DNA of 37,307 nt from Archangium sp. (GCA_044371205.1 JBILUC010000063.1:1-37307), one strand, 5' to 3'; positions 15,806-18,594 are shown, numbered from the stretch's first letter. Notes: generated by a model from the letters alone, not told the origin. Made by a program: numbers and translations.

Positions 15806-17371
15806 TCAGAAACGCACTCCGAGCGAAAGGTCGGCGTCGGCGCCGACGGTCCACAGCGGGCCGTCGACCACCGGCAGGACTTTGGCCCACCCGGTGACGC
15901 CCACCGCGGCGAAGAGCGGGCCCAGCACGGGCACTTCCACCCGCACGTGAGGGCCGACCGCGAAGCCCGGCGTGACGCGAACCGGGAGCGCGGGGTAGCT
16001 GCGGCGAATCTCTGCCTCGCGATCTCGAATGGATTCCTGGCGCAGCACGGAGCCTTCCACCGCCACCCCCGGCATCAACGTCACCGGCCCCAGCCAGAAC
16101 CGGGGCCCTGCGATGAGGCGCGCGGTGAAGCGGTGGTCGCGCGTGGTGAGGTCGACTCCGCGGAACAGCGCGCTGCCCCAGCCGGCCGTCACCGCAGCCC
16201 AGAACTGACCCACGGTGAGCCGGTAGCCGAGGCCCACGCTCCAGCGAACGGGCGTCCCTTCGAGGGGCGGCGCGGCGATGCCCCCGAGGACCTGCAGCGC
16301 GTGCGGGTGAAAGCCGACGTCGCCGCCCTTCAACGAGACCTCGGCGAAGTCGCGCGTGACGAAGCGGCGCGGGTCCACTCGCGAGACGCCACCCCATGGG
16401 AGCTCGACGTCTTGCAGCGCGACCGAGAAGCCACGCGACTGCCGAAGCAGGTACCGGCCCGGCGGCACCGCGAGCGTCACCACGCGGCCTCGCGTCTTCG
16501 TCACCTCGGTCACCACGTCGGCGCGCGGCTGGCTCACCAGCACGAAGCGGCCTTCCATCGTCTCGTCGAGCACCACGCGCGCGCGGCCCTTGTCGAGCGC
16601 GGTCAAGACCACGTCGCTGGACCCTTCGAGCGCGAGCGCGAACTCCGGGTGCTGGCCCTGGTCGACGCTGTTGGCGACCGTGCGGCGCTCGGCGTAGGCG
16701 TACGACTCCATCAGCGAGACGCGGCCGTCGCCGTCGGTGTCGGCGTCTCCGCGCAGACCGCTGATCAAATGGTGGGTGAAGAGCGAGCCTGACAACACAT
16801 CCCATTCCTGGGCGGACTCGCTCGCGCCCGAAGAGGCGATGAAGACTTCACCGCTCACCGAGGGCGGCTGCACCGTGAGCGCGTAGGCCGGGCCCTTCGC
16901 GGCGCCCTTCGAGCGCGAGGCCACCCCCGATTCGCAGGCATCGACGATGGTGATGGTGAGGTCTGCGCCGCAGCTCTTCGCGAGGGAACGGAGCGCCTCG
17001 AGTGGGAGTGACGTGCCGGTGAGGTGCAGCACGCCCCCCTTGCCGTGGCCCGACGCAAAGAGGAGCAGCTCGACGCGACGACCGGCGGCCTTCAGCTCGG
17101 CGACGCGGCCCTGCAGCTCGGCGATTCGTTCGGTCACCTTCGTCGCGGTGGCGCGCTTGAGGACCAGCGCCCGGGCCGGCTCGACGCTGCCCAGCTCGAC
17201 GAAGAGGTCTCGCATGCGCTGCGCGTCTTCTTCCGCGTGCTGCAGGGGCGCTTCGTCGGGGGTGCCGAGGTCGCTCCCGATGCTCAGCAGCAGCCGCACG
17301 GGTGCTTCGGCGGCCAACGCGCTCGCCGCCCACAGCACCAGCGTCAGCAGCAGGGCTCGCATCGGCCTCAC
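15806..17371 (-). CDS. Secreted caspase-like (peptidase C14) protein. It has an EF-hand/dockerin-like Ca-binding loop and a C-terminal domain predicted to be an outer-membrane beta-barrel.
   Basis: Signal peptide MRPMRALLLTLVLWAASALA. Catalytic dyad context FASGHGKGG (His) and ITIVDACESG (Cys). A DADTDGDGRVS loop is present. About 280 C-terminal residues show an alternating pattern and end in ...DADLSLGVRF (terminal Phe). Confidence 0.8.
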   Translation of the reverse strand: MRPMRALLLTLVLWAASALAAEAPVRLLLSIGSDLGTPDEAPLQHAEEDAQRMRDLFVELGSVEPARALVLKRATATKVTERIAELQGRVAELKAAGRRVELLLFASGHGKGGVLHLTGTSLPLEALRSLAKSCGADLTITIVDACESGVASRSKGAAKGPAYALTVQPPSVSGEVFIASSGASESAQEWDVLSGSLFTHHLISGLRGDADTDGDGRVSLMESYAYAERRTVANSVDQGQHPEFALALEGSSDVVLTALDKGRARVVLDETMEGRFVLVSQPRADVVTEVTKTRGRVVTLAVPPGRYLLRQSRGFSVALQDVELPWGGVSRVDPRRFVTRDFAEVSLKGGDVGFHPHALQVLGGIAAPPLEGTPVRWSVGLGYRLTVGQFWAAVTAGWGSALFRGVDLTTRDHRFTARLIAGPRFWLGPVTLMPGVAVEGSVLRQESIRDREAEIRRSYPALPVRVTPGFAVGPHVRVEVPVLGPLFAAVGVTGWAKVLPVVDGPLWTVGADADLSLGVRF

Positions 17372-17395
17372 CCCGCTTCGCGCCGAGAGGGGAGG

Positions 17396-18097
17396 TCATG
17401 GCTTGTCAAAGGTCGACACCTCCACGGTGCAGCCGTCGCACGTCGTCACCCGCGAGAGCTCGGTCAGGTCGAACGAGCGCTCGCTGAAGACGGTGATGAA
17501 GGTGTCAGGCCCGCGCGTCTCGTCGAGCACCGCAGAGTCGGGGAACAGGTTCGACCCGGCGCGCACGGCCATCGGCTCCTTCGCGTCGAACGGAGCGACC
17601 ACCGTCACCTTGCCCGTCGCGTCACGCTCGAGCACCACCGCGAAGCCGTCGGCCGGCGCCTGCACTTCGAACCGCAGGGCGTCACCCGGAGCGAGCTTCG
17701 ACCCCGCGCTCAGGGTGCTCACCGTCTCCCCGCGCTTGAGCGAGATGCGCGAGAGCGAACCCTTGAGGCCCACGCCGCTGCCCTGGCGCAGCTGCGAGAA
17801 GCCGGCAACGCTCATCAACACCACCATCGCCGCCGCGGCCGCGTAGGCGAACACCGGCGTTGGCTTGCCGGGCTTCGATGCGGTGCGCCCTTCGAGCTGC
17901 TTCTGGAACCGCTCCTCGGGGCGCGCGGCGAGAAAGTCGGCCGTCATCGCCTGCAGTGACTTCACCTGCGCGGTGCACGACGCACAGGCCTCGACGTGCC
18001 CCTGCACGCCAGGCAACCAGTCACCGGCCGACGCCTGCTCGAGTTGAACTCGCGGCGGGCAGCCCGGCCCTCGCGATGGAGCCAACGGCGGGTTCAT
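17396..18097 (-). CDS. Anti-sigma factor (zinc-binding HxxxCxxC type) with a single transmembrane segment.
   Basis: Start taken at the internal ATG (aa 157 of track ORF 17396..18565), where protein-like sequence begins. Motif HVEACASCTAQV. TM segment VFAYAAAAAMVVLMSVAGF. The start overlaps the sigma-factor stop (ATGA). Confidence 0.75.
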   Translation of the reverse strand: MNPPLAPSRGPGCPPRVQLEQASAGDWLPGVQGHVEACASCTAQVKSLQAMTADFLAARPEERFQKQLEGRTASKPGKPTPVFAYAAAAAMVVLMSVAGFSQLRQGSGVGLKGSLSRISLKRGETVSTLSAGSKLAPGDALRFEVQAPADGFAVVLERDATGKVTVVAPFDAKEPMAVRAGSNLFPDSAVLDETRGPDTFITVFSERSFDLTELSRVTTCDGCTVEVSTFDKP

Positions 18098-18594
18098 GTC
18101 GCCACCTCCGGCAGTTCGGCGCCGAACACCACGCGCAACTTCGCCTCGGCCTCGCGCAGCTTCACGCCCACCGTCTTGCGCGAGTACCCGGTCTGCTGCG
18201 CCACCTCTTCCTGCGTCAGGCCATCGAGCCAGTGCAGCAGCGCCATCTCTCGCGTCGTCTCGTCGAGCGTCACCAGGGCCGAGCCCATGCACAGCTTGTC
18301 TTCCACCGAGCCGGCGGCGCCCGAATCGAGCCCCATCATCACCTTCAGCGAGCCCAGCACCCCGCGCCGACGCCGCGAGTCGAGCTGGTCGAAGCAGATG
18401 CGGGTCGCGATGGAATAGAGCCAGGGCAGCGGTTGCATCACGTCGTCTCGCCTCGCGCGGTGGGCGCGCATGAACGTCTCCTGCAACGCGTCGTTCGCGT
18501 CGGCCTCGTTGCCCATGAGGGTGCGGCAGCGCCGATGCACGAGCGCTCCGTACTTCGAGTACCACTGGCCGAGGTCGTCATGGCTCACGGGCAA
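18094..18594 (-). CDS. ECF (extracytoplasmic function) RNA polymerase sigma-70 family factor.
   Basis: Region 2 and region 4 signatures (ALQETFMRAHRA ... LTQEEVAQQTGYSRKTVGVKLREAEAKLR). TTG start at 18592-18594. It is translationally coupled to the anti-sigma gene. Confidence 0.85.
   Translation of the reverse strand: MPVSHDDLGQWYSKYGALVHRRCRTLMGNEADANDALQETFMRAHRARRDDVMQPLPWLYSIATRICFDQLDSRRRRGVLGSLKVMMGLDSGAAGSVEDKLCMGSALVTLDETTREMALLHWLDGLTQEEVAQQTGYSRKTVGVKLREAEAKLRVVFGAELPEVAT

Follow-up and report, generated by a model that had tools for sequence, protein, structure and literature searches.

A conserved myxobacterial cassette of an ECF sigma factor, a predicted DUF4384 anti-sigma factor, a caspase-type protease on an outer-membrane barrel and a lipoprotein

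The cassette and its two regulators

The window analysed here is the 37,307-nucleotide (nt) stretch GCA_044371205.1 JBILUC010000063.1:1-37307 from Archangium sp., which has a G+C content of approximately 70% and finds its nearest relatives in Archangium and Myxococcaceae genomes. It carries four genes, all on the minus strand (to which the coordinates below refer unless stated otherwise), for a sigma factor of the extracytoplasmic function (ECF) type, an anti-sigma factor, a caspase-type protease that ends in an outer-membrane beta-barrel (the caspase-barrel protein), and a lipoprotein; together they are a conserved myxobacterial envelope-signalling unit, hereafter the cassette. An earlier reading of the window from sequence alone (the sequence-only reading) had described the first three genes as a sigma/anti-sigma operon driving the protease. 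Their tight linkage, with an ATGA overlap and a spacing of 24 nt, is borne out in full, as is the connection of an ECF sigma/anti-sigma pair with a secreted clan-CD (C14-type) protease, and to these three genes a fourth, at 13920-15731, has to be added as a member of the unit. The cassette was compared over 68 genome loci (L001-L068), with an alignment of 57 caspase-barrel homologues, on which an AlphaFold2 model of the protease was built, and an alignment of 50 anti-sigma orthologues and paralogues from related loci.

The first gene (18094-18594) codes for an ECF (group IV) sigma-70 factor of 166 amino acids (aa) when read from the TTG at 18594, or 164 aa from the GTG at 18588. The GTG is the likelier true start, since it is kept in the orthologues L001-L004 and L015 and the TTG is not. 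Within these 164-166 aa both domains expected of the group are found, Sigma70_r2 at aa 12-77 (E 5.6e-13) and Sigma70_r4_2 at aa 102-153 (E 7.6e-7), and TIGR02937, the NCBIfam model of the ECF superfamily, scores 69 bits against a cut-off of 42.9. The TGA stop of the sigma gene overlaps the ATG of the next gene in an ATGA (gcgacATGAacc).

That second gene (17396-18097) codes for a single-pass protein of 233 aa, which is predicted from its sequence to be the anti-sigma factor of the cassette sigma. It follows the pattern of the ZAS-type (class I, zinc-motif) anti-sigma factors, with a cytoplasmic motif Cys12...His34-x3-Cys38-x2-Cys41 (nt 17975-17998), of which H34, C38 and C41 are each present in 50 of 50 aligned sequences, and then one transmembrane segment at about aa 82-100 (nt 17798-17854), read from the sequence as a hydrophobic stretch. 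No zf-HC2 match above E 0.1 was obtained for the window protein; this domain is detected in relatives (P0300, L055). Approximately 10 residues past the membrane lies Lys112-Gly113 (nt 17759-17764), which stands out from an otherwise variable juxtamembrane stretch (K112 in 49 and G113 in all 50 sequences). Lys232, adjoining the C-terminus, is likewise found in 50 of 50. The periplasmic part contains a DUF4384 domain (PF14326) at aa 135-207 (nt 17477-17695), which scores 28.4 bits when the whole protein is searched and 30.1 bits when only its periplasmic part is (cut-off 27); the signature in these anti-sigma factors is G-D-x-L-R-F, and 13 of 19 homologues have a precomputed PF14326 assignment. 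Near the C-terminus a periplasmic Cys220-x2-Cys223 pair (17429-17440) is kept throughout the main clade (as CDGC, CTGC, CAGC and similar) and is absent from distant paralogues; a disulfide, a redox site or a metal site are possible roles for it.

DUF4384 has been met in the company of proteases before. It is an accessory domain of cyanobacterial orthocaspases (PMC7475262), and in one group of Csx30 proteins it makes up the C-terminal domain, besides being often fused to protease domains (bioRxiv 10.1101/2022.08.17.504292). A pairing of a DUF4384 anti-sigma factor with a caspase was described in no paper found in the literature searched, coverage of which was incomplete.

A caspase-type protease on an outer-membrane barrel

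The third gene (15806-17371) codes for a secreted caspase-type protease with an outer-membrane anchor, of 521 aa when read from the GTG that lies 24 nt past the anti-sigma stop; public gene calls start 9 nt later at the ATG at 17362, 33 nt past that stop, and give 518 aa (P0001). The protein starts with a signal peptide, MRPMRALLLTLVLWAASALA, followed by AE, with cleavage between ALA and AE. The AlphaFold2 model has a predicted local distance difference test score (pLDDT) of 89.7 and consists of three parts.

The first part is a catalytic domain with, according to the model, a caspase/metacaspase fold (aa 25-242, 16646-17299). Assignment to Peptidase C14 and clan CD follows from this predicted fold and from an above-threshold match to Peptidase_C14 (PF00656), which spans aa 41-243 and scores 33.1 bits (cut-off 21.4), so that the hidden Markov model check proposed in the sequence-only reading came out in its favour. 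The catalytic residues His109 (SGH109G, 17045-17047) and Cys146 (DAC146ESG, 16934-16936) are invariant in the 57 homologues and line up with SGHG and DSCHSG of Arabidopsis metacaspase-4 (AtMC4) and with NHG and EACESG of legumain, which puts the dyad at its canonical positions. A further conserved element is the EF-hand-like loop D211-E222 (16706-16741), in which D211-T-D-G-D-G-R-V-S219 is conserved and D211-x-D-x-D-G-x-V-x3-E222 keeps the register of an EF-hand loop between two predicted helices. The signal peptide, the dyad, the DxDxDGxxS loop and the terminal Phe named in the sequence-only reading are thus all present.

As to specificity, a profile comparison with a provisional sequence of the AtMC4 p20 region gave a probability of 93.5, which is a lead only. 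In the alignment to this provisional sequence the invariant D49 and D144 (n=57) fall on the positions of the two aspartates that make up the Arg/Lys-binding S1 pocket in metacaspases. A basic (Arg/Lys) specificity is therefore predicted but not settled. Resemblance to the legumain (C13) family is confined to a local match of 58 residues round the dyad (E 0.015); PF01650 is absent from the window protease, and four homologues have it precomputed. The best NCBIfam match is the EACC1-associated caspase (NF047832), at 50.3 bits far under its cut-off of 140, and a single-sequence search of the PDB with the N-terminal half of the caspase returned noise only. The confidence of the model is lowest in the loop 152-167, just after the catalytic Cys; this loop contains a Lys155-Gly156 that is conserved in 56-57 of the 57 homologues. 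Caspases and metacaspases autoprocess in the region corresponding to this loop.

The second part is a soluble beta-sandwich (aa 243-341, 16349-16645, as given by the secondary structure of the model), which has only a sub-threshold match to CarboxypepD_reg (E 0.016) and is followed by a low-confidence linker (aa 344-353). The idea that this sandwich is a cryptic DUF4384, which would hint at a domain-domain pairing with the anti-sigma factor, was rejected (hhalign probability 0.1).

The third part (aa 357-521, 15809-16303, ending in LGVRF) is modelled as an outer-membrane barrel of eight antiparallel, membrane-length strands that close upon themselves. Hydrophobic alternation is clear in four of the eight strands and weaker in the long strands 3-5; the turns on the periplasmic side are short, with 2-7 residues, and of the four loops on the outside three are longer, with 8-15. 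The C-terminus reads G-x-R-[FLW] in most of the 57 homologues, with V in two of the most distant, and so the protein shows the hallmarks of a small outer-membrane protein (OMP) of the OmpA-TM/OmpX/OmpW/NspA-like kind, namely a signal peptide, alternating residues and a C-terminal aromatic beta-signal. For aa 355-521 no Pfam family matched even at E 10, and by sequence the barrel could be assigned to no described OMP family. The sequence-only reading had treated the C-terminal 280 aa or so as one barrel module; this holds for the last 165 or so residues, and the 100 or so before them (aa 243-341) are the soluble sandwich. The condition under which that reading would have been refuted, a soluble sandwich in place of a barrel, has thus a mixed outcome.

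An even-stranded OMP barrel has both termini in the periplasm, and one of eight strands lacks a lumen for passenger export. Given this established topology, the surface-exposed protease that had been suggested is unlikely; the caspase and sandwich domains should rather hang into the periplasm, tethered to the inner face of the outer membrane. Such an inward-facing, outer-membrane-anchored protease is a new protein architecture and an unusual organisation for a periplasmic protease: fusions of a caspase to an outer-membrane barrel, or to a sandwich plus barrel, were not described in the literature searched (again with incomplete coverage).

With a barrel, a periplasmic domain and an anti-sigma factor that reaches into the periplasm from the inner membrane, the topology would suit cell-surface signalling by contact, in the way that the signalling domain of FecA works on FecR. 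The sigma factor could then be released by binding or unbinding, with no proteolysis, and DUF4384 could alternatively serve as a pseudo-substrate or inhibitor by which the protease is silenced, since clan-CD proteases are commonly held by such partners (as separase is by securin, cited in PMC11506125). I regard this as improbable. The invariance of His, Cys and both Asp residues at the S1 positions in 57 sequences argues for retained catalysis, a domain search of the window proteins found no TonB-dependent, STN or FecR domain, and no way is known in which an eight-stranded barrel could pass a ligand signal across the outer membrane.

Distribution of the sigma/anti-sigma/caspase-barrel arrangement

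The gene order sigma, anti-sigma, caspase-barrel recurs in about 43 of the 68 independent genome loci, at 35-93% identity, which takes it far beyond chance. The arrangement with a DUF4384 anti-sigma factor is found in about 50 Myxococcota loci when paralogues with 31-40% caspase identity are included. In these remote paralogues the C-terminus can no longer be aligned, but it remains aromatic and OMP-like and a signal peptide is retained, with an ECF sigma gene adjacent and in most cases a gene for a DUF4384 protein in between (L042, L044-45, L049-50, L055-59, L057, L061 and L068); the DUF4384 matches at these remote loci are mostly below the Pfam cut-off.

At full length the caspase-barrel family comprises 98 close database clusters, nearly all of 495-531 aa and all from Myxococcota-type sources. 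A search with the C-terminal module by itself gives 196 representatives (at the 50% clustering level), and as almost all of these matches lie from about residue 250 onward in proteins of 500-550 aa, the module is evidently fused to a caspase domain there as well. The architecture is not unique. It belongs to a large Myxococcota family, and a link between sigma factors and metacaspases was reported in passages of a 2012 study by Asplund-Samuelsson et al. (PMC3501461). According to these, four of the five metacaspase genes of Myxococcus xanthus lie in predicted operons with sigma-70-family factors, and such operons also occur in Anaeromyxobacter, Haliangium and Sorangium (PMC3501461). This genomic association is that of the present locus, which is part of a lineage-wide pattern. 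The passages concerned deal with co-occurrence only, name no anti-sigma factor, DUF4384, barrel, promoter or mechanism, and suggest a role in programmed cell death; nor were the barrel, the DUF4384 link and the promoter met elsewhere in the literature searched. The main text of Casas-Pastor 2021 makes no mention of caspase, C14 or DUF4384, and literature searches on ECF with Peptidase_C14, on Myxococcus metacaspase with ECF, and on caspase-like anti-sigma factors in the periplasm found nothing relevant.

Some variants of the caspase-barrel protein were seen. L051-L054 (e.g. L053, 5983-7806) have a paralogous caspase subtype, about 605 aa long, which contains a TPR insert and has GWYFH at its C-terminus; a domain search finds no TPR in the window protease. 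This subtype is accompanied by a divergently oriented ECF sigma gene, has no detectable DUF4384 partner, and shares genomes with the main type (L053 with L004, L054 with L001). Outside the Myxococcota, caspase-barrel-like proteins with 29-30% identity and a C-terminal SVEW occur in two metagenome-assembled genomes, one of a Pseudomonadota (L066) and one of Oligoflexus (L067), where the ECF sigma gene lies downstream and not upstream. Finally, L069 (4001-6895; Logan SRR22388306, P0099) has a 964-aa open reading frame behind its sigma and anti-sigma genes, in which caspase, sandwich and most of the barrel sequence (up to about query residue 465) run on into roughly the C-terminal third of the lipoprotein. 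Either a natural in-frame deletion or fusion or an artefact of assembly may account for it.

The lipoprotein and the promoter motif

The fourth gene (13920-15731) starts after a gap of 74 nt from the caspase stop and codes for a 603-aa lipoprotein with the lipobox LAAC18, followed by a chain of FN3/Ig-like beta-sandwiches. Its syntenic position behind the caspase gene is kept in most of L001-L043, the 43 closest loci, and the lipobox is conserved in 36 homologues. The AlphaFold2 model (pLDDT 89.9) is all-beta; searches of Pfam, NCBIfam and the PDB sequences gave no match, and Foldseek gave only generic matches to proteins with multiple FN3, Ig or macroglobulin domains, with TM values of about 0.2. 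These alpha-2-macroglobulin-like matches are too unspecific to regard the lipoprotein as a protease trap. I also dropped the possibility that it is a second Lys-Gly substrate, as its N-terminal VKG has the Lys in only 23 of 36 sequences.

All statements on promoters made here are in silico only. An alignment of the regions upstream of sigma from the closest genomes revealed a conserved ACTTCCCA-N15/16-CCGTC, and in the window this corresponds to a candidate autoregulated ECF-type promoter at 18614-18639 (-35 TTCCCA at 18639-18634, a 15-nt spacer, and -10 CCGTC at 18618-18614), upstream of 18594 where the sequence-only reading had advised to look for one. A second copy, TTCCCA-N15-CCGTC, lies at 15779-15804 in the gap between the caspase and lipoprotein genes, and the two copies are alike over about 35 nt. 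Searching the window for TTCCC-N16-18-CGTC gives four matches where 1.6 are expected, and two of these are located exactly before the sigma and the lipoprotein genes. Across related loci the family consensus is (G/C)TTCCCA-N15/16-CCG(G)TC, seen as GTTCCCA...CCG(G)TCT. Of 40 orthologous loci, 20 have the motif within 200 nt upstream of sigma, and of the 23 in which a gap exceeding 60 nt precedes the lipoprotein gene, 17 have it there, both to be compared with a background rate of 0.013 per 200 nt; in loci with no gap the caspase and lipoprotein genes overlap or abut. In Anaeromyxobacter-type loci a divergent copy of the motif precedes another Big_2 protein. ECF sigma factors typically have a cognate anti-sigma gene in the same transcript and an autoregulated promoter whose -10 is of the CGTC type; the cassette combines an ATGA-coupled anti-sigma gene with a conserved TTCCCA-N15/16-CCGTC upstream of sigma, of which the -35 is atypical.

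The motif before the sigma operon suggests that this operon is autoregulated, and its recurrence before the lipoprotein gene makes the lipoprotein a probable sigma-dependent output. As the motif stands before the sigma operon and before genes for Ig-like proteins, the regulon would consist of the sigma operon and large Ig-like envelope proteins.

A few observations belong to this region. In L005-L014 and L037 (e.g. L008, 1990-4794) a 934-aa protein with nine Big_2 domains is encoded between the motif and the sigma gene, and the five genes overlap or abut as one operon. In L029 of Archangium gephyra the caspase gene is separated from the lipoprotein gene and its promoter motif by an additional gene (7631-8341), whose product has a MEDS sensory domain (E 2e-43), and L025, L026, L036 and L043 show a similar spacing between these two genes. 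Past the lipoprotein gene of the window, 19 nt from its stop, there is a GC-rich hairpin (13872-13901) with a 10-bp stem, GAGGGCCCGG/CCGGGCCCTC, and a 10-nt loop; this is a possible terminator without a T-tract and was not flagged by a consensus terminator scan. Standard sigma-70 promoter and terminator scans of the region yielded nothing useful.

This inferred regulon bears on what the protease itself is for. One possibility is that it is an output: the anti-sigma factor would sense an unrelated envelope cue via DUF4384, and the caspase-barrel protein would be a stress-induced product of the autoregulated operon, a periplasmic protease for the trimming or breakdown of proteins of the envelope (the Ig-like lipoprotein and Big_2 proteins being possible targets), or an aid to developmental autolysis. 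Its gene lies downstream of the autoregulated promoter and would be induced together with sigma, and the regulon members are large envelope proteins and hence possible substrates. A cell-death role for the sigma-operon metacaspases of Myxococcus was moreover speculated upon in passages of Asplund-Samuelsson et al. (PMC3501461). Nevertheless, a separate copy of the promoter motif stands before the output gene, whereas the protease gene has one in none of the loci inspected. A role as mere product also leaves unexplained why DUF4384 tracks caspase genes across paralogues of 31-40% identity, and why it is fused to proteases and found in Csx30, the substrate of Csx29. I consider this the chief rival explanation, though on the whole a rather unlikely one; the contact-only transducer described above and the defence role discussed below are less likely.

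A proposed role in sigma release

It is more likely that the protease is a component of the signalling than a sigma-driven product. The logic implied by a sigma pair driving the protease is then probably inverted: the protease is co-transcribed within the signalling unit, and the separately promoted output is the lipoprotein. The other option named in the sequence-only reading, a device for regulated proteolysis or signal transduction, is the one that the evidence favours. In its specific form, in which the protease is the switch that releases sigma by cleaving the anti-sigma factor, I give this proposal an even chance of being right.

In the resting state the anti-sigma factor would hold sigma at the inner membrane. 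An envelope signal would trigger the outer-membrane-tethered caspase-type protease, and here one may speculate on Ca2+ acting via the EF-hand-like loop, or on an envelope geometry that lets the tethered partners meet. Site-1 cleavage, the initial cut, would then be made by the protease in the part of the anti-sigma factor that lies in the periplasm, the best candidate site being after the invariant Lys112 of Lys-Gly. Intramembrane proteolysis of the short stub that remains would free sigma, which would amplify its own operon and induce the Ig-like envelope lipoprotein.

The protease is seen as lying within the signalling unit, and not as an add-on, because the gene order is kept in about 43 loci and the DUF4384 partner is kept in remote paralogues. 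The choice of Lys112-Gly113 follows from its match with the predicted Arg/Lys specificity and with the invariant Lys155-Gly156 in the protease loop. The site-1 model as a whole is suggested by the pairing of DUF4384 with caspases across deep paralogy, the links between DUF4384 and proteases in the literature, the compatible topology, and these matching Lys-Gly motifs.

Several points weigh against this proposal. The S1 specificity rests on an alignment with a provisional AtMC4 sequence, and the ACESG round the catalytic Cys resembles that of legumain (implying Asn/Asp specificity), legumain being also the best PDB sequence match near the dyad. Lys112-Gly113 may be conserved for structural reasons, for instance as the first strand of the periplasmic domain. 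Co-transcription also fits a protease that is the output of an autoregulated operon. With respect to the promoter, half of the regions upstream of sigma have no motif within 200 nt; in the clade L005-L014 it is located about 2.9 kb upstream of sigma, before the extra Big_2 gene; and the textbook ECF -35 is GGAAC, against TTCCCA here.

A wider reading, which I find distinctly doubtful, is that DUF4384 serves caspase-fold proteases generally as their recognition (degron) domain, both in Myxococcota anti-sigma factors and in Csx30, and that the cassette is a trans-envelope proximity sensor, in which the tethered caspase gets to Lys112-Gly113 and cuts there only upon a change in periplasmic spacing, peptidoglycan integrity or Ca2+. 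If this were true, a caspase would act as site-1 protease in ECF signalling pathways of a new class, with several paralogous copies per myxobacterial genome.

Comparison with known systems

The logic proposed for the cassette is that of RseA/FecR-type regulated proteolysis, in which DegS and RseP act on RseA (sigma-E), and Prc and RseP on FecR-type anti-sigma factors, with a periplasmic site-1 cut in response to a cue from the envelope or outer membrane and then the intramembrane release of an autoregulated ECF sigma factor; cell-surface signalling has an outer-membrane component as well. In the cassette, however, the site-1 enzyme would be a caspase-fold cysteine protease of the outer membrane, and not a PDZ serine protease or a tail-specific protease. 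The cassette is not of the FecA/FecR/FecI type, as its proteins have no TonB_dep_Rec, Plug, STN, FecR or RseA domain and the barrel is eight-stranded. In comparison with bacterial C14 proteins and orthocaspases, such as GSU0716 of Geobacter (3BIJ), DUF4384 is located here on the partner protein and not on the protease.

Closer at hand is the pair DdvS/DdvA of M. xanthus, in which the anti-sigma factor DdvA has a periplasmic caspase-like TPR-CHAT domain and is proposed to cleave itself before RseP acts (PMC11506125). It shares with the cassette a myxobacterial ECF sigma factor, a single-pass anti-sigma factor with a zinc motif, and a periplasmic caspase-fold His-Cys domain (PMC11506125). In DdvA, however, CHAT is fused to the anti-sigma factor and acts in a dimer, whereas in the cassette a separate C14-type protein is anchored in the outer membrane and the anti-sigma factor carries DUF4384 in place of TPR-CHAT. 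The outputs differ too: DdvS drives genes of the cyclic-oligonucleotide-based anti-phage signalling system (CBASS) and of clustered regularly interspaced short palindromic repeats (CRISPR), and the cassette probably the Ig-like lipoprotein. In type III-E CRISPR systems (Craspase), the caspase-like Csx29 (TPR-CHAT) cleaves Csx30, the partner of the ECF sigma factor RpoE (bioRxiv 10.1101/2022.08.17.504292). A caspase-family protease that cuts a sigma-binding partner, and DUF4384, are common to Craspase and the proposed logic of the cassette, yet Craspase is cytoplasmic, RNA-guided and CRISPR-associated, in contrast to a periplasmic C14-like protease and a transmembrane anti-sigma factor. The cassette is not a Craspase, there being no cas genes among its neighbours, no PADLOC match for protease or anti-sigma factor, and no TPR.

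In type III-E CRISPR and in the DdvA system of M. xanthus, caspase-like proteases are paired with ECF sigma factors and anti-sigma-like proteins, which could be taken to mean that the cassette is an anti-phage or abortive-infection module, like Craspase or the DdvS/DdvA defence island, with the caspase as death or defence effector. The EACC1-associated caspase as best NCBIfam match points the same way, yet it is far under the cut-off (50 versus 140 bits). I hold a defence function to be highly improbable. The four proteins have no PADLOC match save a marginal one of the helix-turn-helix of sigma to a CARF model (E 0.0035, 14.8 bits); cas, CBASS and other defence genes are absent from the conserved neighbourhood; the conserved regulon would be one of Ig-like envelope proteins; and a periplasmic protease would be kept apart from phage nucleic acids.

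Bacterial caspase homologues are abundant in developmentally complex bacteria, and almost none has a defined function. The cassette offers a testable role for them outside cell death, the gating of an ECF sigma factor from the periplasm. DUF4384 connects the sigma-metacaspase operons of 2012 with the TPR-CHAT domain of DdvA and with Craspase/Csx30, which suggests a recurrent design, in which sigma regulators are cleaved by caspase-type proteases. These observations could give rise to experiments, for which the catalytic Cys, the Lys-Gly sites in substrate and protease, the promoter motif with its output gene, and the natural paralogues provide the handles.

Other genes in the window

An R2K-clade ATP-grasp gene at 18774-19844 (minus strand) was considered as a member of the unit and rejected, as it is absent from all 68 related loci. 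Farther away are genes for a membrane protein with three PEGA domains (20249-21907, plus strand), an HlyIII-family protein (21911-22825, minus strand), a Suv3-like DEXQ helicase (25606-28164, plus strand), a DUF6782/M78-like putative metallopeptidase (5414-7138, minus strand) and a nucleotidyltransferase (10523-11440, minus strand). VIT-VWA architectures accompany vault/PARP-like systems in eukaryotes. In the window a 723-aa major-vault-protein-like protein (22749-24920, plus strand; MVP_shoulder E 1.3e-31, with a Vault_3 repeat) is encoded about 12 kb from a 962-aa protein with VIT (E 2e-23) and VWA (7517-10405, minus strand).

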